Assembly: GCA_918797485.1 (NCBI GenBank)
Contig: CAKKNE010000006.1
Coordinates: 2,170,001-2,234,000 of the forward strand
Length of the DNA stretch: 64,000 nt
Reading direction: 5' to 3'
Source of the DNA: Pelagomonas calceolata
Lineage: Eukaryota
In this document: positions 17,201 through 54,670 of the stretch, one piece after another
Layout: the number at the start of each line of letters is the position of its first letter
Numbering within the stretch: the stretch's first letter is position 1
Notes under the pieces: model-generated
Told to the model about the DNA's origin: nothing
The model's database searches: none
What the model saw: the letters and a program-made list of their open reading frames with translations, nothing else
Made by a program: the position numbers and the translations under genes

Positions 17201-17362
17201 TCGCTCCGGCGCGGCGGCGCGCCGATCAGGCACGGCGGCGCGGAGCTTCGGGCCGCGATCTGCCTGCTCCGCGCGACGCCCGATGACGACTCGCTCTGCG
17301 CCGCCCGCCGCCGCGCGAATTCTTCGGCGATATCCGCGTGCCCCGCAAACACGCGCTCGTAG
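14222..17362 (+). CDS. Large secreted multidomain glycosyltransferase-like protein (DUF3431-like N-terminal domain, C-terminal YDWVAKLRPDL domain)
   Basis: 1046-aa ORF with signal-like start; NTGKE and GHFLERLWRALY motifs; YDxVxxxRPD motif. Confidence 0.65.
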   Translation: MLNQHMGGSAWRLLICAACQAAAVTCPANEGSEACRLVPPAAGYTRHGITLDALRSSDCVVVTTTMRHPGRGIEIAAQLARATPVVAPDACCARFVPLTFCREEARLLDANGTCNVSTARNTGKEAMGLLIAFSDEVLRPALARACGVLSVPETAMDRVGRDRERRATRIARTLRSGVAVGPYWSGGAFRQHGQFHWRPPLTYKAWTLDPASPATLGEWGRAVLPPDAVARAARGNWSTEWSKGVFFVNATAARRYAAPTYVRFMRELAFPHPAAGHFLERLWRALYGAESAAAARVAEDRPVIGASRALGAGTDWWANLSTPAAARYQYGGDHASACADARARQRAWRSAYEHAGWVADAPDLGVCEPRGAPCVEDSLSGCCDRGPVPGPAPPRAGSFVAVSLASSEAPCAVRQSVVDVLAVAVPATLVVIHVGCYSPASPADRVALADAFPGRAVLNPACVPTLRAYGSILHAHLRNVKFLAALYGSSGPSHVILAAANLAWRARGFEAFAVRTGASALAAPAFRRLDRNRTFDAADGDWARLNRTRAGDGVLVQKHEGAFYPFAVLERMVAFLEAAGPLGRLNARTCLGCAALPGLCVEELYPANLYRLLTGAGGAPCAADDACRPWDGTLAARADHLRPGDLGATKFAVKDWRHRGCDGAPEPDAAGPAAPPPVSAFDCASDDDCDAARRERCVGRGEGPGAAWPGQCVVEAPPAPWAFTCAYAYPAVGGAVAGAPVVPDGAPCLTLVVDAAPPRVAAAPAVAVLVVGLAEGLDRPQVYERMRSCFLRNLGRHDVFVNLELAADPKTLMADARWNHAGRAVGARDVAPALAALRPRLVTLGEPRIEGFADGGNAWNRSDWYSGTRHDTHCGGRAWKVDLHYGAGRAVRIYDRYRRAMLLVNAAERADGRRYDWVAKLRPDLFFAAPVGFADVFGDAGANVAVRWAWFNAVSRDAATAGFVDGALTYWRCAGVEGLPGHTTVKDETWLAESLRRGGAPIRHGGAELRAAICLLRATPDDDSLCAARRRANSSAISACPANTRS

Positions 17363-17428
17363 CGATTAAATGTGCCAGTGTTGTCCGCGTGAGTACTTGC
17401 TTGTAGTACATACATTCAAAAACCACAA

Positions 17429-18962
17429 TTACACAAAGGTCCCTGCGTCCGGACTTGCGTCCGGCGGCGCCGCGTCCGCGTCCGCGTCCGCCGCGGGCGA
17501 CGCCGCCCGCTTCGGCCGCACGGCCCGCGCCAGCGGCGACACGATCCGCTCGAGGGGCTGCCTTGCTAGGCCGCGCGCGACCTGGGACGTCTCTCTATGG
17601 ACGTCGGACACGTCGAAGAGCACGCGGCCGACGCCGACGCCCGGCGGCGCCCGCCCGACGCGCCGGTGGCGCCAGAGCCGCCGCTCCCGCCGCTGCACCT
17701 CGTAGAAGTCGCCCCAGGCCCCGAGCCAGCCCTCCGCCACCCGTCCGAATTGCGCCGCGGGGAAGGCCCAGGCGTGCAGTAGCGCGAAAAGCAGCATCTC
17801 GACGCACATTAATGTGGCTTTGATCGCCGACTGCACCGCGGGGTCTTTTGCTGGACGCGCGAGGAAGTAGGCGCTGATCCCCAGATCCTGGAAGAACGTG
17901 CCAAAAACTAAACCCTTGACTGCCACAAACTTCCAGAAGGGCTCCGCCGGCACCAGTATGTTCGACTTTTTGCACGTCGCGTAGTAGAACAAGACCAGAC
18001 AGTAGATGGCGTGGTTCGCCACGTTGAACTGCACGAAGTCGAGCCAGTTCTTGGGCGAGAGCAGGGCCGCCGTGACCTGTGTGGAAATCGACCAGTACGC
18101 CATCGAGCTGCCGCGGTCACGGCGACAACGTCGCGTCGATGGCGTGGGGCGCCCGAAATTCGATTTCCACACAGGCCGTGACCGAGGCGTCGTCCGAGCT
18201 CGCGAGGCTCCCCAACACGTCGACCAAACCATTCAACGGGGCGACCGTCGCATAGAGTAAAATGACGTAGCGGCACTGGTCGAAGAAGTCGGAAGTGTCC
18301 AGCCGCCAGGGCGCCCAGACGTAGGGCGACATGATAGGATGCGAGACAATCGGGTAGGAGATGTCCGGCGTCACTATCGGAGTATGTGTGACAGGCACGA
18401 CGTCCTCCGTCCGTAACGCGTTCTGGAGCACTTTATAAGGCGGCGCGTCGAAGTGGACTTCTAGATAAGTCGACATAAAATAAAAAAAGTTCAGCACCGT
18501 GTAGGCCTCGTAGCAGTCCCGGAGAGCCGCGGGGATCGACGCGAATTTCAACATGTCCGGCGCGCCGTGGATCGCCGCTAGGGAAAAAGCCAGCTCACAC
18601 AACGAACAGATCGCATAGACGGGCACCATCCACAAAATCCTCACCACATACACTTGGAGGACCGGCTGCCAGAAATTCGTGAGGTGCTGTCTGATACCAT
18701 GTATGGAAATCGGGATCGAGATGCCCGCGAAGATTAATGAGACGGGCAGCAGGAACTTGTCCGGCGTGGCCTTTCTGTAAGCTGCGAGCCAATAGAGCAT
18801 GGCCGGTAAGGCTGCCGCTAATAGGAGCATGATAAAAAGTACTAAACACACGTAGGTCGCCTTTTCCTTCACGACGTGCCGTCGCTGTAAGCGCTCATAT
18901 AACTCGTCATCATCTGTGTCGTCGTTCAGCGGTGCGCTGAGTTCCGTCGGGTCCGGCTCCAT
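17429..18962 (-). CDS. TMEM184: TMEM184/OST-alpha family transporter; exons 18962-18183 and 18076-17429 (475 aa)
   Basis: LQVYVVRILWMVPVYA, RDCYEAY, KFVAVKGLVFGTFFQ, LMCVEML. Removing the GT..AG intron 18077-18182 joins the two ORFs in frame. Confidence 0.9.
18069..18182 (-). mobile_element. Introner (MITE-like intron): 98-bp element 18077-18174, 15-bp perfect TIR, 8-bp perfect TSD
   Basis: GCCGTGAC (18069-76) CTGTGTGGAAATCGA ... TCGATTTCCACACAG GCCGTGAC (18175-82); inner inverted repeat ACGCCATCGA/TCGATGGCGT. Confidence 0.95.
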
Positions 18963-19155
18963 GGTTCTGCCAGCCGATGCGCGCCGCAGCCGCGCGGATG
19001 CTCTGTTTGACCAGGGTGTCTGAGAGCCCGCGGCTAAGGGGCGTAGCGCGAGGGCTCGTGGAATGAACTGAGAAGAAATAAATGACCCAGTAACTCGTAC
19101 AGGCCCGCAGGGAGACCACGGAGGCGCACTTTTGACTTTTGGCCTCCGAGCATAG

Positions 19156-19176
19156 CTAGCGCATGTAAGACACTAG
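19156..19176. promoter_or_regulatory. CTAG-N13-CTAG intergenic motif
   Basis: CTAGCGCATGTAAGACACTAG between divergent starts. Confidence 0.6.
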
Positions 19177-19438
19177 TCCGGCGCTGTATTCGCCTCCTGA
19201 GGCAGTATATCGACGGATAGAGGGCATAAAGCTGCCACACGCATCCCACGCGAGGCGCACAAACCTTTTGGGGCTGCCTCGACGCCACCGACGCGCGCCC
19301 AGCTGCCCCACCAAGAGCCCTGCCAAACAATACGCCTGTCGTAGCGGTGGGGAATATCCTTTGGGCTGCCCGACGCGATATATAGGCTGCAGAGTAAGCC
19401 AAGGCCAAGAATAGCTGCCAGAGCAAGCCAAGGCCAGA

Positions 19439-19915
19439 ATGTCAGACATCCGAGTGACCGTGCCACCCTTGGACGAGCTCAAGGAAGCCTTTGCGAAATT
19501 CGACACGGAAAGCTCGGGCGCGATACCGGTCCACGACCTCGGAGCATTATTGCGCTCCGTCGGCGTCGTCGAGCTCAAGGAAGATGACCTGCAGGCGCTG
19601 ATTAGTGAAGAGATGTTCGACAAGAATTTCGACCTGCCCGAGTTCTTAGCATTAATGGTCGAGATCGGCCACACGCTGCCCGCGCCCGGCACGGAGAAGA
19701 AAGAGCTGCGGAAGGCCTTTAAGGCTGCCGATTCTGACAAAGACGGCTACCTGACGCCCGACGAGCTGCGACAAGCGATGGACGGCATGGCCGCCGAGCC
19801 GTTGGGAGATGACGAGTTTCAAGTCATGCTGGATGAGTGCAGGAGGGACGCGGAGATCGAAGAAGGCGAGCCGATAAAAATCGACGCGGCGGTGCGGTTC
19901 TTCCTGACCTCATAA
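19439..19915 (+). CDS. Calmodulin/centrin-like EF-hand protein
   Basis: ELKEAFAKFDTESSG, ELRKAFKAADSDKDGYLTPDEL. Confidence 0.85.
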   Translation: MSDIRVTVPPLDELKEAFAKFDTESSGAIPVHDLGALLRSVGVVELKEDDLQALISEEMFDKNFDLPEFLALMVEIGHTLPAPGTEKKELRKAFKAADSDKDGYLTPDELRQAMDGMAAEPLGDDEFQVMLDECRRDAEIEEGEPIKIDAAVRFFLTS

Positions 19916-19963
19916 AATTGTATATGTGAGACGAGCACTTAAGGGGAGAAAAGGGACAAAAAT

Positions 19964-20389
19964 TCACTCCTCGGCGTCGCCCGCATCAGCCATCGCGCGC
20001 GCGTCCTCGCGCGCCTTCTTGCACGCGTCGTAGGCGGCCTTGCACTTCTCCTCGACCTCCTTCGCCTCGGCCGCGAGGCGCTCGGCCTCCTTGCACTTCT
20101 CGGTCACCGTCTCGCGGTCCTTGCGCTCGATGGCCGCGAGCGCCTCCTGGGACGCCTGCTGGGCCTGCTGCGAGAGCGACTCCGCCTCGAGCGCGTACTT
20201 CTGGGCCTCCTGGGCGCGCGCCTCGATCTCCTCGACGGCCTTCAACGACATGCCCTGGGAGAGGTCGGGCCGCGGGTCCTTGGCGAGGTAGGGAGACACG
20301 GGCGTCCAGTTGCGCCAGCTCGCGGGGTCGCTCGCCGGCGCGTCTGCGGGGGGGCGGTCGCGTCGCCGGGCGTTTGCGGTCGCGCGCAT
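19964..20389 (-). CDS. Hypothetical coiled-coil protein (5' end uncertain)
   Basis: 141-aa ORF, E/K/A-rich helical C-terminus with strong GC3; ACACAAATG start context. Confidence 0.65.
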   Translation of the reverse strand: MRATANARRRDRPPADAPASDPASWRNWTPVSPYLAKDPRPDLSQGMSLKAVEEIEARAQEAQKYALEAESLSQQAQQASQEALAAIERKDRETVTEKCKEAERLAAEAKEVEEKCKAAYDACKKAREDARAMADAGDAEE

Positions 20390-20996
20390 TTGTGTGTAGC
20401 AGCCGCGGCCGTGTAGAGACCGGCGTCATCGGGGCGGTTTCGCGCAGGTGCGTCTCGGCCGGCCGACGCGGCGCGCCGTCGTTGGAGTGCGCGTGCTGCC
20501 AGGTGTGTGTGGAGCGTCCGTTCGATCGCTAACGGCCGCGGCGCCGCAGGAGTTCGGGCGGCGGCAAACGAGGGTCCTAGTGATTGGAGCTGTTGGGCAC
20601 TGGTAGCCACCGGTCGGCATCGCGCTCGACATCTCTGCACAGCGGTGGTCTTTTAGCACTGCCCAGCTGTATGGAAAGGGCCCGAGGCGTGCTGATTTGC
20701 CAAAAACGCCGAGCGCTGAGCGGTTGGAGGAAAACCCGAATTGATTTGTTCGTTCGAAACCATCTCAATAATGAGTGTACAAGAGTGTTCTCAGCGCCGT
20801 CAGAGCGTGGCACCGCCGGAGAAAACCCGCATTCTCAGCCAAGCTTGCAAAAAGACTGCGCGGCATTGTCCATATCACAGCCGCGGTGTGCCCGCACGGC
20901 TGGTGTAGTAGTGCTACGTGTCGCACTGCTGCCACCACAACAGCTGGCGAGCCCTGCGCTGCCTACGAGCAGCACAGGCAGCAGGGCAGCTATAGC

Positions 20997-23900
20997 ATGA
21001 AGACCAAACCAGGCGGACGCGCAGCGAGAACCGACCTGCCACCCGACATTCCGGAAGAGCTCAAGGCACTAGATGACGCCGCGTTACTAGATGCACTAGA
21101 AACGCAGCCGCCGGCCGTCGCGACGCGCGCGCTGCACGAGCGATTAAGGAAGAAACCGGCGCCCTCGGACGCGTTCAAGAGTGGCGCGCGCGTCTTGCTC
21201 GCGCGCATCGTCTTCCGCACGCCGTCGTCGAGTGCGGCGACGGCCGCCGCGGCTTATGGATTTTCCGGACCCGACGGCGCGCTCTTGCTCGAAGCGTTGC
21301 GAGGCGCGCTCGAGAAAACATCATCGACCAATGCGTTTACGAACGCGGCGGCTCGAGCCTTGGTCGCTACTGATTCTGAAGCGTACAAACGCGAGGAGTG
21401 GCCGCTGTCCGCGAAAGTCGCGCTCGTCCACGCCGCCGCCAAGACGCTGAAACATACGGAAGCCGCTTCAAAAATCTGCGCGGACGCTTCTAGAACTGCG
21501 GACGACGATGTCACAAGGGCCGCGGCGCTCGACGCGCTCACGGCGCTGGCGAAGCGCTCGAAATCATGCCGCGGTATCGCATCACAAGCGGCCGCCGATT
21601 CATTAAGGCGGCCCCTGGACCGGCGGCGGTTTGCCGCCGCCGTGGCCTGCTTGAAGATTTGCGGTTCGTCAAATGTGACCGCAGCATTAAAGACGGCGAA
21701 CGACCCCGACGCGTGCCTCAGAGGCCGCTGCGCCGCTCTAGAAGCGGCGCTGCCTTCGTTACAAGCGCCGCCATCGACTATGTGGGTTGATTTAGTTGAG
21801 CCGGGATTAACTGGAGACGCGGGGTCGAGACGAGCGGCCGTGGACCTCGCCTCAACAGCTTCGAACACCTTCGGCTTCGAGAGCTCGGGCGCGCTGCAGT
21901 GTTTGGTGCAGTCATTAGCCTCGTCCAAACAAGGCGTCGACGAGCTGTGCCTCAAGCTCTTGGATTGTGAGGATCATGATAGGAGGTGCTCATCGTTAGC
22001 CGCGGAGCTGCTTCTCGGGGCGCCGCCTTCCTGTAGAGTCCGGGCCTGCCGCGCGGCGTTGCAAGCGCGGTCGCAGTCGACGCACGCTTCGAAGCTGCTC
22101 GACGACGACGCGTTACGTGAAGCTTTGATGGATGCCGACGACGCGTGCCGCGCGGCGGCCGTCGAGGTGCTGGGGAGGCGCTCGTCCGATCCAAGGCGCC
22201 TGGCGGCGTTTTTTGATGATGCGCCGCTCGAGAAAGCGCTGAAATGTGCGGCGCGGCGCTTAGCGCGGAGTTCAGCAGCTCTAGAATTGGGCGAACTCGC
22301 GTGTCGTGCCTTGGGCGATGCCAGTACGGAGGCGAACGCGTCATCAGTGCTCGAGGGCTTGTCCGACGGCCCCCACGCCGTGGAATTAGTGGAAAGATGC
22401 CGTTCTTCACTATTAGAAGCTTTGCGGACGTCGCGCTGGGACCGACGGCGGCGCGTCTACTACGACTTACTGAAACTAGGCCCACCGATCAAGGAAGACC
22501 ATGATGAGGACTTCTCCGACGGTTCTGCAAGGCTGACCGCTTTGTCTGGAGATTTGAGCCTCGCGTCGAAAGCAGAGGCGACCATAAAATCGCCTTATCT
22601 AGGAGCGCTTTCGCTCCTAGCGGACCAATTGGACGACTCAAGCGCTCTCAGTGCCGCCGGCGCCGCCGCGCGAGATTTAAGGTTGTGGGGTGCCCAGCTG
22701 CCGGCCGAAGATGGCCATGAAGACTCGTCTGATGAGGAGGGCGAGTCCGACGCGTGGCACGGCTGCCGGAACGCCTGCGCGTTGGCAGCTTCTGTAGCGC
22801 GCCACGCCCCTACTATGATTGGCGACGCGGCCCTTGAGCTACTATTGAGGACGCGCCACACGGGCGCCATCAACGGGGGCGAGAGTGTCCTAAGGGCGGC
22901 GTCCTTGTCAGGCACGGACGAGGATCGAAGGAGGTGGCTCAAGACCGCGTTGACGTCGTGTCGGCGACCGGACGACCATTTATCGAGACGCCGGAGCGCC
23001 GGCCTCGGCGCGGCGCACGCCGCTTTGCTGGACACGGATCCCTCTCTCTCACAAAACGCGTGCAAGTTTCTGATTACCATCGCTTCCAATGGAGGAGCTA
23101 GAGACGCGAAGAGGGCGTTGAATGTTCTGGCGGCCGTCGCCGACCGCGCCTCGAATGCGTTGCGGCACGATTTGGGGAAGGCGCTGAGCGCCTCGCTGAC
23201 ACGCGCGGACGACGGCGACTGGGGGTGTCGAGGGGCGGCGGCGCTGTGCGCCGCCGCTTTGTTGAGACGTTTGTACCGCGACGAGCGGAGTCTTTTCGAC
23301 GGGGCGGAAGGCGACTTGCGGTCCTATACTCATATAAAGGAGGCCGTCGACGACGCTTTAGCACGGGAGGGCCCCATCGGCCGCACGATCGCGTTGCGTT
23401 GTATTCGTGGCTGCCGAGCGTCAAAACCATCGCAAGAGACGTGGCTCGCGTTACTCGGCGCGAGCGACCAGCGCGTCCGCGTCGCCGCCGCCGAGACGCT
23501 TTCTTCCTTGAACGAACCCTGGTGCACTCCATCACTACTGTGCGACGGCTTGTTACCTCAGAACGACCCCAATGGTGCCCACGGCCGCCTCCTGTGCTGC
23601 GCTTTACTCCCTCAAACAAATTCCACGGACGACGTCAAGAGTTTAATTAGATGCGCGTCGCGCCTCGCGCCCAAGAATGCCGATGAGGTCTGGTGCCCGC
23701 CCGTCCATCTGGTGGCGTGCGAGGCCTTGGCAAAGCACGCGCCGGCGACGCCGCGCCTGGCCGCGGCCGAGAACGCATGTATTGAGCGAATATTGGCGCG
23801 TGGCACACGCCCCGACACTTTACCAGGAGAGGGCCGCCTCGACGCGGCGCTCGCTATTAGAAGATGCGCGCGGTTAATTGGAGAGGACGCGAACGAGGCC

Positions 23901-24926
23901 CTCAAGCTGCTCGACGACGACGTCGCGGACCCCGTCGCCATTGGATTGCTGGGCGCGGCATCAAAAGCGTGCGGCATTGTCAGAGACGAGCGGTTTTTAG
24001 ATGATTTGGATCTGGACGAGGCTACGTGTGAAATTGGGGAGGGCCGCGTGCCGCCGTACGTCGTCCAGGCCGAGCTTCGGAGGCTCACGACGGCGTCTCC
24101 ATCAAGGCGCGCGGCGGCGCTGAAACTCGCGCTCGCGGCGGCGGCGTGCGGGAGCCTCCACGAGGCCGTCGTCGAGGTCGAGGTGCCTGCCGCCGTCGTC
24201 GAATCTTCCAGGAGGTGGCCCGAGGCCGCGCGCGCGGTCGTGGCGCAGCTCAGGGCGATCCTACAAAACGACCACGGGCCCGCGTTGTCGTGCTTCCGGG
24301 CCAACGGCGGCGTTCTATTGAGGCGGGGCGCCGCGCGCGCGTGTGCGCTGCTCCAGGACCCGCCTTCTTCAGTAATTCAGGCGTGCCTGGCCCTCGCGTG
24401 CGATTCTGATCGCGTCGTCCGGGCCAACGCGGCCGACGCGCTGGCGCCGGGGCTCAGTCCGGCGGCCGCCGTCGTTAGTGTGGCGGCGGAGTTCACGGGC
24501 GTCGTGCCCGTCAAGGCCAAGGCGCTGCTGGCGCGGCGCGCGGCGTTGATGAAGGCGCCGCCCGCGGCCGCGCCGCCGGGGCTCGTGGTCGACGCGCCGC
24601 CGCCGCCGCCCTCGCCGATCTCTCCGGCGACGCCCCCCAAGCGCGTTGGCTCCAACAGCAAGTTCCCGGCAGTTCCTGATCCCGAGACGGTCCGCGCGCC
24701 CGCGACGACGCCGCTCGCGTCGCCCCAGCGGGCGGCCGCGCCGCCGCCGCCGCCGTCGCCGACGACGCCGCGCAAGTCCGTGGACCTCCCCGGCTTCGCG
24801 CCCTCGAAGGCGGCGAAGCCCGTCGCGGCGACGCCCGACGCCAAGCCGCGCCGCAAGGTGTCCTCGCTCATCAAGCGCTTCGAGCGCAAGAAGGGCGCCG
24901 CGTCCCCGCCGGAAGCACCTAAGTGA
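20997..24926 (+). CDS. THADA: THADA/Trm732-like ARM-repeat protein with Pro-rich tail
   Basis: LLRTRHTGA, SRRRSAGL, ALNVL, DWGCRGAA resemble the DUF2428 region of THADA; start at MKTKPG. Confidence 0.7.
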   Translation: MKTKPGGRAARTDLPPDIPEELKALDDAALLDALETQPPAVATRALHERLRKKPAPSDAFKSGARVLLARIVFRTPSSSAATAAAAYGFSGPDGALLLEALRGALEKTSSTNAFTNAAARALVATDSEAYKREEWPLSAKVALVHAAAKTLKHTEAASKICADASRTADDDVTRAAALDALTALAKRSKSCRGIASQAAADSLRRPLDRRRFAAAVACLKICGSSNVTAALKTANDPDACLRGRCAALEAALPSLQAPPSTMWVDLVEPGLTGDAGSRRAAVDLASTASNTFGFESSGALQCLVQSLASSKQGVDELCLKLLDCEDHDRRCSSLAAELLLGAPPSCRVRACRAALQARSQSTHASKLLDDDALREALMDADDACRAAAVEVLGRRSSDPRRLAAFFDDAPLEKALKCAARRLARSSAALELGELACRALGDASTEANASSVLEGLSDGPHAVELVERCRSSLLEALRTSRWDRRRRVYYDLLKLGPPIKEDHDEDFSDGSARLTALSGDLSLASKAEATIKSPYLGALSLLADQLDDSSALSAAGAAARDLRLWGAQLPAEDGHEDSSDEEGESDAWHGCRNACALAASVARHAPTMIGDAALELLLRTRHTGAINGGESVLRAASLSGTDEDRRRWLKTALTSCRRPDDHLSRRRSAGLGAAHAALLDTDPSLSQNACKFLITIASNGGARDAKRALNVLAAVADRASNALRHDLGKALSASLTRADDGDWGCRGAAALCAAALLRRLYRDERSLFDGAEGDLRSYTHIKEAVDDALAREGPIGRTIALRCIRGCRASKPSQETWLALLGASDQRVRVAAAETLSSLNEPWCTPSLLCDGLLPQNDPNGAHGRLLCCALLPQTNSTDDVKSLIRCASRLAPKNADEVWCPPVHLVACEALAKHAPATPRLAAAENACIERILARGTRPDTLPGEGRLDAALAIRRCARLIGEDANEALKLLDDDVADPVAIGLLGAASKACGIVRDERFLDDLDLDEATCEIGEGRVPPYVVQAELRRLTTASPSRRAAALKLALAAAACGSLHEAVVEVEVPAAVVESSRRWPEAARAVVAQLRAILQNDHGPALSCFRANGGVLLRRGAARACALLQDPPSSVIQACLALACDSDRVVRANAADALAPGLSPAAAVVSVAAEFTGVVPVKAKALLARRAALMKAPPAAAPPGLVVDAPPPPPSPISPATPPKRVGSNSKFPAVPDPETVRAPATTPLASPQRAAAPPPPPSPTTPRKSVDLPGFAPSKAAKPVAATPDAKPRRKVSSLIKRFERKKGAASPPEAPK

Positions 24927-24976
24927 ATGTGACTCATCAACTTCATACGCCATCGCCGCGAATTCTAGAAGAATAC

Positions 24977-25789
24977 TTAGTCCCCGGCGGCCGCTCGAGC
25001 GGCCGCGGCAGCATCAGCGAGTGCGGCAGCCGGCGCCGGCGCCGGCACCACGGCCAAATAGTCGGGCCCGATGCGCGGCGCCGGCGGGGCCCTATACGGA
25101 CCGACGCACTGCTTCCGGAACTCGTTCAGCAGGGGATACACTTTCCGGAAGGCCTCGTGCAGTTGAGCTACGGATCTCGCCCCCGTCAAGACGATGCGCC
25201 CAGACACGAAGGTCAGGATCACCGTCTTCGGCTCGAGCAACCGATAGATCAGCCCCGGAAATAATTCAGGCTCGTAACTTGCATAAGTGTTGTGCGCGAA
25301 GGCCAACGCCTCCAACCGAATAGGGAAGCCCACGTTCACCGTCGCGACGACGTTCTGTAGTCTGAAACCAGTGAACTGGACCGGAAAACCAATTTTTGCT
25401 ATTATAGCGGCGTAGATCCGCGCGCCTCGCTTCGCGGCCGCTTCGGATTTCGCGCCGGTGCACACCAACTTGCCGCTCTGGAACACGAGAGCCGTACACC
25501 TAGGCTCCCGTAACCGCATCACGACCGCGGAGAACTTTCTTGGATTGTACTCGGCGTTGCGCGCATGCGTGGAAAGTTTTCTCAAATCCAAGGGTGTTTT
25601 CAGATTGACCGTGGCGACGACGTTCTGGACCTCCATCGTCGTCCTTTGTTGCAACATGGCCTTCGTCACCTCGTCGTCGTCTTCACCGGCCTCTAAGAGG
25701 GGGTCGGTTCTATTGGCTTCGTCCGTCGCCTGCTCGACGGTGGCCACCAGCGCGTCGTCGGCGGCGTCGTTCGCGGCGAGTTCGGCCAT
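24977..25789 (-). CDS. TBP: TATA-box binding protein (or TBP-like)
   Basis: QNVVATVNL, NAEYNPRKFSAVVMRLREP, SYEPELFPGLIYR, FVSGRIVLTGA. Confidence 0.97.
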   Translation of the reverse strand: MAELAANDAADDALVATVEQATDEANRTDPLLEAGEDDDEVTKAMLQQRTTMEVQNVVATVNLKTPLDLRKLSTHARNAEYNPRKFSAVVMRLREPRCTALVFQSGKLVCTGAKSEAAAKRGARIYAAIIAKIGFPVQFTGFRLQNVVATVNVGFPIRLEALAFAHNTYASYEPELFPGLIYRLLEPKTVILTFVSGRIVLTGARSVAQLHEAFRKVYPLLNEFRKQCVGPYRAPPAPRIGPDYLAVVPAPAPAAALADAAAAARAAAGD

Positions 25790-26719
25790 TTTGTTCTTTG
25801 TTTGCGTCGCGCGCTCGGCGCTGCACCGCAGCGCTGTGATGTTTGGCCTGTTGCGAGGGCGCTACGGCACCGGCGATTGTAAGCTCTCCCAGTCCGCTGC
25901 GGGCCGGCTCTGGGAAGTTGTACGACGCGCTCTTTGCGTGTGGTTACGCGTCTATAGACGTGTTTTGGTCGATTTGCGCCGGGGCCGCAAACTAGCGTGC
26001 ATAGAGACACTAGTGCGACGGAAAATCTGATTCTCGGCGGAGGTGTCTTGGAAGGCTCGTCAGAAGCCAGAATAGACTCTTGCGATTCTGTTGTCTGCAT
26101 TCGGCCGCGCCCAAAAGCTGAGTTTTGGCATAAGACGAGGCGCGAGGCAGCTGGCCACGCCGCTGCGCTGTGAAGTAAAGCACGGCGTCTAGGAAAGATT
26201 GTATTTGCGATTCGCTGCCCTCTACCTCCGAAACCGCCCCAGCGGGTGCGCTGAGGAGGCTGTACCGCAACCCTCACCGATTGGAGCCATTCTCTGCCGA
26301 GCGGCGCGGCGCGGGCTTGCGCGCTCTCTAACGGCGGCCCAATGCGCTGCTGCGCGCCGTGCGCTTCCGCCGGCGGGACTGGCGGCGGTACTGCTGGAAC
26401 CGCGGCGCGACCGGGTCGTGTTCCGCGCGTTCCGCTCAGTCAAAAGCCCAGCCCGAGCGTTGCGCCGCGGGCTCGCGCGCGCGCTGCTCCGGATGGCTCA
26501 CTCAAAAACGCCACCCGAACGGGGCGCCGCCGGCTTGTGATGCTCTCCGCGGCTCAAACCGCCTGAGGCGCCGCCGCCTCACTCAATTCCCGCCCTTGCG
26601 CCGCCGCCGATTGCTGTTGCCCCACGCGATGCCCCCCGCGCAGGTGAGAAGTCGACGCGACCGCTGCGCCGGTGACTTGAGTGCTAAACGTCGACGCCAC
26701 CGCGCCGACGACTTGAGAA

Positions 26720-27109
26720 ATGTGGGCCCTCGCAAGGAGGGCGCCGCGGCTCGCCGCAGCCGCCGCGCGGCCGCGCTGCGCCGCGCGGGCCTTGTCCGGC
26801 AGCGACGGCAAAATCCCCGAGGACATCAACCAGCAGGCGGGCCGGCGGCTCGAGGAGATGAAGTACGAGCTCGCCGGCGAGGGCGAGCTCTTCTCGCGGG
26901 ACCCCATCGTGCCGCCCGCCGACCAGGGCACGAAGGAGAACCCGATCCTCGTGCCGAGCGCCGAGCACGAGCGGGCCGTCGGCTACGAGGACCCCGACGC
27001 GGGGCAATTGGTCTGGTTCACGCTGACCAAGGGGCCGGTGCACTACGTGCCGGACATCGACCTCTACTTCAAGATGTTCCCTGTGGGCGACGGGTCCGGC
27101 GGGCACTGA
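26720..27109 (+). CDS. COX5B: Cytochrome c oxidase subunit 5b-like, mitochondrial
   Basis: Arg/Ala presequence; QQAGRRLEE, GTKENPILVPS..ERAVG, LVWFTL. Confidence 0.85.
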   Translation: MWALARRAPRLAAAAARPRCAARALSGSDGKIPEDINQQAGRRLEEMKYELAGEGELFSRDPIVPPADQGTKENPILVPSAEHERAVGYEDPDAGQLVWFTLTKGPVHYVPDIDLYFKMFPVGDGSGGH

Positions 27110-27507
27110 GCGCTTGGCGGCCGCGCTATTCTGCCGCGTCTGTCTCGGCGGCGGCGCGTCCCGCATTAATACATAGTCTAGATTACTCTCCTTTTGTGCG
27201 CGTCGGCGGCGCCGGGTGGGAGCGCTAGCGCGTCCTGGCTCTACGTCCTGGCCCGGGAATGGCACCCCGCGCGCGACCAGTAAACGCGACGCCGTCGCTC
27301 CGGTCTCTCTCTCCATTCGCCCTTTCTGCGGGTATATCGTTACGGTGATAGGACTAGTGGCGGAGCCTCTCTCGGCTAGTGCCTTACAGGGTCTAGCTGC
27401 TGTTCTTTGCCATCAGATTTAAGGCTGCCACGAAGCACCTCTGCCGGTGACGGCATCGATTTTGTAAGGAGTGTGCTGCCAGCTCTCTCGACGCCGCAGC
27501 AGATTCA

Positions 27508-28366
27508 ATGGCGCGACTCGTGTGGGCATGCAGCCTCGCACTCTGCGCAGGCTTCCAGCCGCCGCGCCTTACGCCGCCGCCGCGGCACACCATGCAGGCC
27601 GACGCGGCCAGCATCTTGGACAGCACGCTGTCGCTCGCCAACTCCGAGGAGTTTTTGGGGGGCATCGTCGGCTTCTTACCGCTCATCGCAAGACCCAGTG
27701 CGTAAATCATGACCTCACGCCATCGACGCGACGCCAGCTCGATGGCACGGCACACAGGCGATCCCCGGCGTGCTCGTCGGCATCCCGTTCCTCGTGTTCA
27801 ACCGCCTGAAAGACTTGGAAGGAGACGCCTACACGGAGACGGTCTTCACGGACAAGCAGCCTCCCCGGCGGCCCGGGGCCGAACCCGTCGTGCGAAAGAA
27901 GGACATCGACATGTCCTACGCGGAGCTCGAGCAAAAGTACGGCGAGGCGACGCTCTTCAAAGATGACGCGCCGCCGAAACCGCCGGTGAACGAGCCCTTC
28001 GCGCTGCCGGAATTGCCGTCGTTTCCGAGCTTCGGCGGCGACGCGCCCGCGCCGCCAAAATACGAGGCGCCACCTTCCCAACCGGAGGAGGAGTTCGCCC
28101 TCCCGGAGCTCAAGCTCCCTTCGTTACCATCCTTTCCGTCCTTCGGCGGCGGCGCCGCGGCGCCGCCGCCGCGATACGACGACGCGGCGCCGGCGCCGCC
28201 CGAGGAGGAGTTCAAGCTCCCCGAGATCTCCCTGCCGTCGTTCCCGAACCCGTTCGGCGGCGGCGCGCCGCCCGCGCGGGAGCCCGTCTTCGCCGACGAG
28301 GAGGAGGACGAGCCGGCGGCCGAGGAGCCGTTCAAGCTGCCCGAGGTGAAGTTTCCCTGGCAGTGA
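27508..28366 (+). CDS. Putative plastid-targeted single-TM protein with F-x-L-P repeats; exons 27508-27687 and 27758-28366 (262 aa)
   Basis: Signal + CAG-F transit motif; GC..AG intron removal gives the continuous hydrophobic stretch GIVGFLPLIAIPGVLVGIPFLVF; repeats FALPELPSFPSFGG. Confidence 0.75.
27688..27757 (+). mobile_element. Decayed introner-family intron (GC-AG, 70 nt)
   Basis: GCAAGACC vs GCGATCCC (5/8); ends CAGTGCGTAAATC..CACACAG; core CACGCCATCGACGCGACG..CAGCTCGATGGC shared with the 18077 element. Confidence 0.85.
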
Positions 28367-52882: not shown

Positions 52883-53590
52883 ATGCCCTCCATCAGCCAG
52901 CGCATGGCCCAGAGCGAGGGCCGCCCGATTTCAACAAGACGGCCCTCCTCAACAACGGCGCCCGACGCGCCGCCGACGAGCCGCCAGCCCTTCGTGCCCA
53001 CCACCGACGCCGGCGCCTGGGGCGGCTTCCTCGACGCGCAGGCGCACAAGCCGGGCGGGACGGCGCGGCGCCAGAAGCACGCTCCCCAACCGCCGCCGCC
53101 GCCGCCGCCGCCGCCTCCCTCAAAAAAGTGGGACCGCTACGTCGACGCCGCAAGTGGCAAGCCCTACTGGCACGACGCTCATTCGGGAGAGACGACCTGG
53201 GACGAGCCCGTGACGCCACCGCCGCCGCCGCCGCCGCCAAGAGAGCGCTGGGTCGAGTTGTATGACGACGCGAGCGAGCGCCCGTACTACCACGACCCGG
53301 CCTCCGGTAGCGTTCGATGGGACGAGCCCGAGACGATTGACGAGCACGGGTCGGCGCTCTTCGCTCTCTCAGGCAAGGCCGTGCCGCCGCCTCCATCAGA
53401 AGAGGCGGAGGAGGCGCCGCCCGCGCGGACGCTCCGCCGGCCGTCGAACCCGTGGCAGAAGAAACCGGCCGCGCCGGTGGTCGACTCATCGAGCGAGTCG
53501 GAGGCAGCCGATGATACGGACCTCGCGGCGCGCGTGGCGGCGCTGGAGAAGACGGTCGCGGCGCTCGTGCGGCGCCTGGCGCGTTCTTGA
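52883..53590 (+). CDS. Tandem WW-domain, poly-Pro protein
   Basis: WDRYVDAASGKPYWHDAHSGETTWDEP and WVELYDDASERPYYHDPASGSVRWDEP. Confidence 0.85.
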   Translation: MPSISQRMAQSEGRPISTRRPSSTTAPDAPPTSRQPFVPTTDAGAWGGFLDAQAHKPGGTARRQKHAPQPPPPPPPPPPSKKWDRYVDAASGKPYWHDAHSGETTWDEPVTPPPPPPPPRERWVELYDDASERPYYHDPASGSVRWDEPETIDEHGSALFALSGKAVPPPPSEEAEEAPPARTLRRPSNPWQKKPAAPVVDSSSESEAADDTDLAARVAALEKTVAALVRRLARS

Positions 53591-53875
53591 CCCCCGTGGC
53601 CCCTTCAGCTGAGTAAGTGGGTAGCTGTTACTTGGATTTTGGGAGCGCTAGCACCTTTCAGCTGATGCAACAAAACCCGTACAAGCTGCAGAGCGCCTGT
53701 CCAGGTCTGCAGCCTGTGCTACAGGACAAGCGGAGCAGTAAGAAGTTGCATTCGTTCAGGTCATCATACGTGCGCATTCGTTCCGTTTGAGTTAGGCGCC
53801 TGTTAGCTGTATAATCGATCGTGCACACCGGAGAGCACTCTCCCAAACGCCATCCGTGCGACATTGCGAGAACGC

Positions 53876-54670
53876 ATGGCTCGACACGTCGTCGCCGCGG
53901 CCCTCTGCTTCGCCGCTGCATGGGCATTGCTGCATAACCAACGCACACGCAACCTACCACTGGCCATCGCCGCGAAAAAGACGGTCTGGACCTTCGACGA
54001 GGCGCGCGACTACGCGCGGTCTTTCGGCTTCGGCTCCAAGGACGAGTACGTCGAGTACCGCTGCCCCGGCGCGTATGCGCTACCTCGAAACCCGGTCGAG
54101 GCGTTTGGTGAGCGCTGGACGTCATGGGAGGACTACCTCGGGCTTCGTACAGGTGTCGATGATGCGGAAGTCGTGACGCGGCCGGGCTTCGAGCAGGTGC
54201 TGTTCGTCGAGATGGGCTGGGGCGCCGACCAGCACGGCCAGAACGCGACCAAGGCGTGCGTCCGCGCGGCTCGGAATGCTATCGAGTTTAACAGCATCCC
54301 GTCGATCCGCGCGGAGCCGGCGTCCTCGACTCGTCGACGCCGTCGCGCGCGTCGCGTCGATAGCGTCGGGGGGGGGGGACGCCGTCGCCGCGTGTTGCGT
54401 CGACGGCGCCACACTGACCATGCGAACGCAGGCGCGCTCGTGCCCAATGGCTACGAGGGCATGAAGCTGGCCGTGGACCTCGCCGTGCCGGAGGCGTACC
54501 ACGAACATATCGACGTCGACGCCGTCGGGGCGGTCTTCCCCTACGGCGCCGTCTCAATACGACTGCAGCCCGGCGGCGCGGAGTTCTCCTCGGGCATCGC
54601 GATCCCGGCCATGGGTGATAAAGGAGACGCGCTCGTCGTCGCGCTGTGCTGCGTGACCGTGGGCTACTGA
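53876..54670 (+). CDS. Lin0512-family domain protein with N-terminal integrase-repeat-like unit; in-frame intron 54309-54431
   Basis: FDEARDYAR..LPRNP..WTSWEDYLG; FVEMGWGADQHGQNATKACVRAARNAIEFNSIP..VFPYG..VTVGY. Confidence 0.8.
   Translation: MARHVVAAALCFAAAWALLHNQRTRNLPLAIAAKKTVWTFDEARDYARSFGFGSKDEYVEYRCPGAYALPRNPVEAFGERWTSWEDYLGLRTGVDDAEVVTRPGFEQVLFVEMGWGADQHGQNATKACVRAARNAIEFNSIPSIRAEPASSTRRRRRARRVDSVGGGGRRRRVLRRRRHTDHANAGALVPNGYEGMKLAVDLAVPEAYHEHIDVDAVGAVFPYGAVSIRLQPGGAEFSSGIAIPAMGDKGDALVVALCCVTVGY
54309..54431 (+). mobile_element. Decayed introner-family in-frame intron (GC-AG, 123 nt)
   Basis: GCGCGGAG vs GCGCGCTC (5/8); CCGGCGTCCT..GAACGCAG; contains GTCGCGTCGATAGCGT (family core, reverse orientation). 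Confidence 0.75.

Follow-up and report, generated by a model that had tools for sequence, protein, structure and literature searches.

The window analysed here is the whole 64,000-nucleotide stretch of Pelagomonas calceolata contig CAKKNE010000006.1 (assembly GCA_918797485.1, forward-strand positions 2,170,001 to 2,234,000), and all coordinates below count from its first letter. Its GC content of 64.5% and its gene-dense eukaryotic content agree with the published P. calceolata genome, for which the genome paper gives 63% GC and 0.45 introns per gene (PMC9481584). On the minus strand lies a Solute_trans_a (TMEM184-like) gene whose coding sequence is interrupted by a 98-bp element bounded by terminal inverted repeats (TIRs) and flanked by an 8-bp target-site duplication (TSD). 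It is very probable that this element is a non-autonomous TIR transposon of the introner type, removed together with one TSD copy as a 106-nt GT..AG intron. The features of the locus, in the order in which the gene is read, are listed below.

18183..18962, minus strand: exon 1 of the Solute_trans_a (TMEM184-like) gene, 260 codons from ATG, equal to residues 1-260 of P0015 (CAH0379513.1).
18077..18182, minus strand: intron, GT..AG, 106 nt, consisting of one TSD copy plus the whole element; given by the RNA joint.
18175..18182, minus strand: upstream, intronic TSD copy, GTCACGGC on the gene strand, whose first 2 bases are the 5' splice site.
18160..18174, minus strand: TIR arm on the 5' side of the intron, CTGTGTGGAAATCGA on the gene strand, holding an unused internal donor candidate, CTGT/GTGG.
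18092..18159, no strand assigned: core of the element, including the inner 10-bp inverted repeat; from the repeat finder.
18077..18091, minus strand: TIR arm on the 3' side of the intron, whose end ...CCACACAG gives the AG acceptor.
18069..18076, minus strand: downstream, exonic TSD copy, GTC ACG GC., which forms the first 8 nt of exon 2.
17429..18076, minus strand: exon 2, 215 codons plus the TAA stop.

Direct reading of the sequence places the element at 18077-18174, and a repeat finder delimits its parts. The two TIR arms (18077-18091 and 18160-18174) are 15 bp long and 100% complementary, and they extend to 16 nt if the flanking C/G is included; the exact 8-bp TSD, GCCGTGAC, occupies 18069-18076 and 18175-18182, and this direct repeat extends to 9 nt if the following C is included; the inner inverted repeat pairs 18097-18106 with 18136-18145 over 10 nt at 100%. 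The termini of the element form the pair CTGTGTGGAAATC...GATTTCCACACAG. Read on the minus strand, the stretch 18182-18077 comprises 106 nt, 8 from one TSD copy and 98 from the element; GT opens it and CAG closes it. A preliminary description of this DNA, drawn from the letters alone, had listed the 98-bp element, the perfect 15-bp TIRs, the 8-bp TSD and the inner 10-bp inverted repeat, and each of these was recovered both in the sequence and by the repeat finder. The hairpin fold predicted for the element has a free energy of -65.8 kcal/mol (z = -4.15), with 0 of 200 shuffles as stable, and in this prediction the TIR stem sets the donor beside the acceptor in the pre-mRNA.

Splicing of the focal intron was followed by mapping reads to 17300-19200 from X21, a raw polyA RNA-Seq data set, and from X8, X11 and X13, three contig sets that are RNA by guess only; the contigs of X3 and X10 were the DNA data sets compared. 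Within X21, 18 reads from 14 start places skip exactly 106 nt, all of them on the exon strand. The junction, 18068>18175, shows CT..AC on the plus strand at cut +8, corresponding to GT..AG on the minus strand, and the joint slides over 9 letters owing to the duplication. Moreover, X8, X11 and X13 each contain one contig of ~1.35 kb that bridges the junction with 0 other letters. The DNA contigs, conversely, keep the element: X3 provides 17300-18095 (exon 2 into the element) and 18147-22176 (element into exon 1), X10 provides 18147-19166, all with 0 other letters, and the joined form is found in 0 contigs of these two DNA runs. Because the element is kept in the DNA contigs and the joined form is present in RNA only, the joined form reflects splicing and not an empty allele. 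The RNA junction 18182/18077, proposed in the preliminary description as a check, was thus found in four RNA studies (X21, X8, X11 and X13), and the joints confirm its assignment of the GT donor to the first TSD copy and of the CAG acceptor to the TIR. The internal donor CTGT/GTGG, which would keep 12 nt and thereby 4 residues as in a family of Aureococcus sp., was rejected for the focal copy, as the complete joint table of 17300-19200 holds no joint at it.

The spliced product is an intact protein. Exon 1 matches the Pfam family PF03619 Solute_trans_a (TMEM184/OST-alpha family) at profile positions 4-142 (E 3.7e-23) and exon 2 matches it at positions 165-266 (E 3.2e-18), while removal of the intron joins ...GAC GCC TCG / GTC ACG GCG GCC CTG CTC..., that is, DAS/VTAALL. 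The product of exons 1 and 2 is identical at 475/475 residues to CAH0379513.1 of P. calceolata, so the focal intron has already been removed in the deposited gene model; the expectation that splicing restores the pre-insertion codons is therefore upheld by the junction and by this identity. The intron length is 1 mod 3, and its retention would shift the frame. The spliced product is also colinear with orthologs across the exon junction. A protein search with exon 2 returned Chrysophaeum taylorii and Pelagophyceae sp. CCMP2097, each at 47% identity, the Aureococcus anophagefferens ortholog at 52% identity over 36% of the query (a different species from that of the window), and a 90% cluster of 72 members that includes P0015, which lies on a 3.9-Mb contig. 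Splicing takes out precisely the nucleotides gained by insertion, leaving an mRNA for an uninterrupted Solute_trans_a protein.

A second copy of the element lies in the same window.

27688..27757, plus strand: second, degraded family member, a 70-nt GC..AG intron made of 8 nt, GCAAGACC, and a 62-nt element, CAGTGCG...CACACAG.

Its joint, 27687>27758, is carried by 45 X21 RNA reads from 24 start places and by one X8 contig. The 8 nt downstream of this copy, GCGATCCC, match GCAAGACC at 5/8 positions, and a profile built from environmental copies alone matches 27700-27747 (E 5.5e-4). Pairwise alignment with the focal element on the gene strand reveals a common left end (CAGTGCGTAAATC / CTGTGTGGAAATC), the blocks CACGCCATCGACGCGAC and CAGCTCGATGGC and the final CACACAG, together with internal deletions in the second copy; the degraded copy starts at 27696 with CAGTG and the focal element with CTGTG. 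The second copy is an older, eroded member that follows the same rule of 8 nt plus element, with a GC donor. Among the joints listed, RNA reveals four introns in 17300-28000, two of which are these family members. The other two are GT..AG introns, at 20344-20610 (minus strand, 267 nt, 727 RNA reads) and 26175-26643 (plus strand, 469 nt, 34 RNA reads), and neither has a family-profile match at E <= 10. In the same part of the window, 24593-24610 and also 24726-24773 show very high depth and many discordant loose ends in DNA and RNA runs, which for 24593-24610 points to another short repeat or a GC-rich low-complexity motif common across the genome.

The element belongs to a large family in marine metagenomes. 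In RNA and DNA runs alike, read depth is 10 to 100 times higher over the focal element, on both strands, and the loose read ends at the end of the TIR (18174-18176) are mutually discordant, corresponding to many different flanks. The summed depth of the X3 DNA reaches 11867 at 18161 and 25423 at 27736, against ~16 for single-copy contigs, a rough measure that is not a copy number but from which the family would comprise, as a rough estimate, hundreds of copies or more. Metagenome contigs were scanned for the two 12-nt termini spaced 60-90 nt apart, so that visible lengths are bounded to 84-114 bp, and the metagenome figures given here rest on the at least 120 stretches listed. The scan gave at least 121 copies at at least 111 unique insertion sites. 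For the 109 listed sites with both flanks, the two TSD copies match at 8/8 positions in 35 cases, at 7/8 in 23, at 6/8 in 17 and at 5/8 or fewer in 34, whereas shuffled pairings reach 8/8 in 0.3%; perfect direct repeats occur only in register 8, with 35 cases against 0, 1, 0 and 0 in registers 6, 7, 9 and 10. The profile from environmental copies alone matches the focal element with E = 1.4e-18. A multi-copy, non-autonomous family, as the preliminary description had supposed, is accordingly present, with at least 111 unique metagenome sites bearing their own 8-bp TSDs. Of the 117 distinct environmental elements listed, those most like the focal one (92.9% and 91.8% identity) are two copies at other sites, also of 98 bp, and the motif CACGCCATCG / CGATGGCGTG recurs in 69 of these 117.

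The consequences of these insertions for the reading frame were assessed by an open reading frame (ORF) test on the 84 listed sites with at least 150 nt on both sides, of which 82 were scorable and 2 too weak. Cutting out exactly 8 nt together with the element yields the longest two-sided ORF at 55 of the 82 sites, against 16 and 11 for the other registers (binomial p = 5e-10). At these 55 restored sites, where the ORFs alone decided the strand, GT serves as donor in 39, GC in 9 and another dinucleotide in 7, and the element, whose core is asymmetric, stands in one orientation at 31 and in the other at 24. The mirror-image ends CTGTG...CACAG are present on both strands, so a CAG acceptor is offered in either orientation. 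The family follows one rule: an 8-bp TSD, a GT or GC donor at TSD positions 1-2 and a CAG acceptor from the end of the TIR, in either orientation. What marks an introner was found here as a multi-copy family with TIRs and TSDs, copies spliced in coding genes and, for another copy, presence and absence at an orthologous site (see below). In the majority of the listed stretches (L001-L120), read in one element orientation, ...AATCAACCAGTGAGT... stands ~16-24 nt from the end and includes a strong donor-like GTGAGT inside the element; this internal GTGAGT is presumably unused, since splicing at it would lengthen the message by 26 nt and put it out of frame. At the corresponding place the focal copy reads GTACGC, on the non-coding strand.

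The target sites are biased in sequence. GY opens the TSD on at least one strand at 98 of the 109 listed sites, compared with 32% of background 8-mers. GY stands at one end or the other of all 35 perfect TSDs; in 14 of them both ends have it (GY....RC), where independent ends would give 9.7% (p = 2e-6). When these 35 are combined into a symmetrised profile, T2 and A7 each account for 39/70 and C2/G7 for 24/70, counts that are confounded by selection for GT/GC donors; the preferred target also has G1/C8, and C2/G7 is tolerated. The palindromic component of the bias points to a preference of the transposase, and selection for spliceable insertions in a gene-dense genome surely also acts. Hermes, a hAT transposon, likewise makes an 8-bp TSD, and its target nTnnnnAn (T2 and A7) resembles the palindromic component seen here (PMC10368747); the present family differs from it in its CTG..CAG termini, in its preference for G1/C8 and in its tolerance of C2/G7. 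On the 8-bp TSD and the GY....RC bias, the transposase may be hAT-like.

Presence and absence of a family member at one orthologous site was observed at the DNA level elsewhere in the window.

54286..54293, plus strand: empty target site GTTTAACA, filled in the environmental ortholog L076, which reads GTTCAGCA, a 113-bp family element, and GTTCAACA.

The environmental stretch L076 is orthologous to window positions 53314-54560, with 81-92% identity, and its mismatches by coordinate mod 3 (74, 35 and 25) reveal a plus-strand coding frame. L076 and window positions 54286-54293 are a filled/empty pair at the DNA level, with a transposition-type duplication whose TSD opens with GT, and such an orthologous pair indicates mobility among ocean Pelagomonas lineages. 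Close by, at 54308-54436, the window holds 129 nt of a plus-strand gene (in the frame of ORF 53807-54670) where L076 has AGAAAA, which makes the window 123 nt longer there without a change of frame. This segment contains CGTCGCGTCGATAGCGTCGGGG, which resembles the family core, and ...GCCACACTGACC. It was considered as a third family relative and rejected as not significant (family profile E = 2.8); a decayed relative, a further intron and a coding insertion are the candidate explanations.

The proteins of the exon 2 cluster and its relatives bear on the age of the focal insertion. Five cluster proteins of 281-282 residues consist of exon 1 read through into the same element to its stop codon, and their read-through tails differ by 0 to 4 residues (for example, ...VTACVDIKFRAPHAI... 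compared with ...VTACVEIEFRAPHAI... in the window). By direct count, 4 of these 5 haplotypes are 95-98% identical to exon 1, and the fifth, P0025, is 96% identical by alignment, its count being upset by a one-residue offset. With several diverged haplotypes carrying it, the focal insertion is no brand-new event. Proteins of a sister group (SSNDAS...; 469-475 residues; contigs no longer than 4.9 kb) show no interruption at the focal site, and their source may be either genomic DNA or spliced RNA. P0027, a 78% identical relative on a 122-kb genomic contig, is likewise uninterrupted at the focal site, as judged at the protein level. The preliminary description had called the insertion recent, which holds in so far as it falls within the lineages of the species complex, given the uninterrupted P0027, and does not hold in the sense of a brand new event, given its sharing by haplotypes at 95-98%. 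From these protein comparisons, the gain of the focal intron is inferred to fall within the P. calceolata lineage. The same gene also differs elsewhere among relatives: P0002, P0027 and P0031 (77-79% identical) have an in-frame insert of 37 residues (VKRGAS...PRLQ) 18 codons past the focal junction, absent from P0003 (a near-twin of P0027) and from the window. The ends of this insert resemble a GT...CAG intron read through by a gene caller, which suggests a separate intron gain in the sister lineage, in the same gene.

The mechanism proposed for the focal intron starts with insertion by a cut-and-paste transposase that would be encoded elsewhere and is predicted to be hAT-like. Insertion would duplicate the 8-bp target, adding 8 + 98 nt to the gene. 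The spliceosome takes the GT that opens the upstream TSD copy as the 5' site and the CAG that closes the TIR as the 3' site, and the hairpin formed by the TIRs would, in the folding model, bring the two splice sites together in the pre-mRNA.

Three other accounts of the locus bear on this proposal. The joined form could stem from DNA excision or an empty allele in the cultures instead of splicing, an account that profits from the uncertain RNA origin of three of the four RNA data sets and from the loss of rare variants from contigs; it is highly improbable, as X21 is raw polyA RNA-Seq and its 18 junction reads lie on the exon strand, the DNA runs have no joined contig and both have clean contigs over the element/exon borders, and what is removed is bounded by GT..AG and comprises one TSD copy and the element, no more and no less. 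So precise a result of cut-and-paste excision is rare. The element could also have landed in a pre-existing intron, decorating and not creating it, since miniature inverted-repeat transposable elements (MITEs) are commonly found in introns and an empty focal site was not obtained at the DNA level. Against this stand the composition of the focal intron, which is wholly one TSD copy plus the element (106 = 8 + 98), the same arithmetic in the second window copy (70 = 8 + 62), the frame restored by removal of exactly 8 nt plus the element at 55/82 listed environmental sites and the uninterrupted focal site of P0027, and there is very little chance that this account is right. Finally, direct and inverted repeats might be chance features of an ordinary GC-rich intron, in which short repeats are frequent (12 inverted pairs were counted in 451 nt); the match of the environment-only profile to the focal element and the more than 100 other sites with the same termini and their own 8-bp TSDs refute this account, the least probable of all those considered. 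An introner removed with one TSD copy remains the preferred reading.

Several findings nevertheless weigh against this reading or parts of it. In the ORF test, another register scored best at 27 of the 82 sites, and the test is blind to the difference between exact excision and an internal donor that retains 12 nt, because both leave the same frame. As to the gain of the focal intron, the preliminary description had proposed a search for empty sites in other strains, and none was found at the DNA level: X3 and X10 are both occupied, and X10 is letter-identical to the window in the compared region. The uninterrupted P0016, P0021, P0024, P0022, P0026, P0019 and P0001 could derive from spliced RNA and not from empty DNA, and the nearest copies found are only 92-93% identical, so that nothing shows recent activity of the subfamily. 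As to the enzyme, no transposase is present among the 37 scanned of the 38 window ORFs of at least 300 aa, the 38th being the host gene, and the focal element begins with CTG, unlike the CAG or TAG with which the 5' ends of hAT elements typically start. Moreover, GY-starting TSDs are about equally frequent where the ORF is not restored (26/29) and where it is restored (51/55), so that selection and target preference are not cleanly separated. These last findings leave room for a transposase outside the hAT group, such as P, MULE or Zisupton-like enzymes, which are able to make 8-bp or similar TSDs, with the GY start due only to selection for spliceable insertions. Such an origin would be in line with the CTG...CAG termini, with the absence of a transposase from the scanned window ORFs and with a coding-strand bias that is much stronger at TSD positions 1-2 (G at 50/55; T or C at 49/55) than at positions 7-8. 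It fits less well with a TSD of exactly 8 bp and with the palindromic component described above (GY on both strands in 14/35; T2 and A7 at 39/70 each), which matches the Hermes nTnnnnAn, and a non-hAT enzyme is on balance rather doubtful, though well short of negligible. Under the hAT-like reading, the palindromic GY....RC preference and the mirror-image ends might ensure that every insertion is born with a 5' splice site in its TSD, a CAG 3' site and a hairpin holding both, through the preference of the enzyme and not only through selection. This is put forward tentatively, with slightly more doubt than belief; if true, it would amount to a strand-symmetric, ready-made intron design that works from either strand and in either orientation.

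Among mechanisms for bursts of intron gain, introners have the best support, and the focal locus is a textbook-clean, read-backed instance in one gene. The founding paper, by Huff, Zilberman and Roy (Nature, 2016), is said to have described MITE-like intron-making elements in Aureococcus anophagefferens and Micromonas pusilla, with TSDs, TIRs and co-opted splice sites; the A. anophagefferens introners differ from the focal element in size, being cited as about 210 bp. In P. calceolata itself, 956 putative introner elements with GT and GC donors, AG acceptors and conserved TIRs are reported in Supplementary Note 3 of Guerin et al. (2022, Commun Biol, PMC9481584). The present copies share with them the organism, the TIRs, the GT/GC donors and the AG acceptors, the GC donor of the second copy being in agreement with that report, whereas the paper stresses an intron-size peak near 210 bp, compared with 106 nt for the focal intron. 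Four element motifs had no match in the searched parts of its supplement, and motif searches of the searched supplement parts of PMC9860276 likewise gave no match.

Gozashti et al. (2022, PNAS, PMC9860276, Fig. 2B) describe introners whose 3' splice site lies in the element and whose 5' site is supplied by the TSD. Specifically, the Symbiodinium microadriaticum introners in that figure resemble the present family in their TIRs, the element-borne 3' site and the 5' site co-opted from the TSD, and differ in their 4-bp TSD and dinoflagellate host, no sequence relationship being expected. Also comparable is introner family 4 of Aureococcus sp. (a TARA metagenome-assembled genome, MAG; PMC9860276, Fig. 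2F, Supplementary Table 6): it too is from a pelagophyte and is short (~77-nt introns), with TIRs and an 8-bp TSD, and its internal donor 4 nt in is comparable to CTGT/GTGG here. The statement of the preliminary description that introners with 8-bp TSDs are known from Aureococcus is borne out by this family, as far as the figure and table go. In family 4, however, the element carries both splice sites and 12 nt (4 + 8) are kept, adding 4 residues, whereas the Pelagomonas copies use the GT of the TSD itself (GC in the second copy) and add nothing. Supplementary Table 6 of the same paper also lists introner families of ~80-85 nt and ~180 nt from Pelagomonas MAGs, with TSD and TIR calls given as '?'. 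The main text of PMC12130899 (PNAS 2025) has no mention of Pelagomonas, Aureococcus, hAT or pelagophy-. Element class, mechanism and host species have all been published and the focal intron is in the public annotation, so it is already known and represents no new kind of element. The present analysis adds the exact 8-bp TSD of the family, the GT/GC donor rule in both orientations, the palindromic target bias and the filled/empty pair; the first three were not found stated for Pelagomonas in the searched parts of PMC9481584, PMC9860276 and PMC12130899, and the Guerin element table or the 2016 paper of Huff and colleagues may contain them.

The focal copy also has some individual traits. Within its core, 18115-18124 repeats the element's own target (18068-18077; 18175-18183) in inverted form, without a mismatch over 10 nt, and could pair with either TSD copy in RNA. 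As a family trait, this was rejected, since an 8/8 match occurs in 0 of the 35 perfect-TSD copies, against 0.4% of shuffled pairings, and the inverted copy is probably due to chance; position 18123 is C in the focal element and mostly G or A in other copies. Both focal TIR arms read ...ATCGA (18090 and 18161), where most family copies read ...ATCAA: T at 18161 makes up 94% of the X3 DNA depth and is found in nearly all environmental copies. In the same focal insertion, other haplotypes encode K (AAA), and the window and P0023 encode E (GAA).

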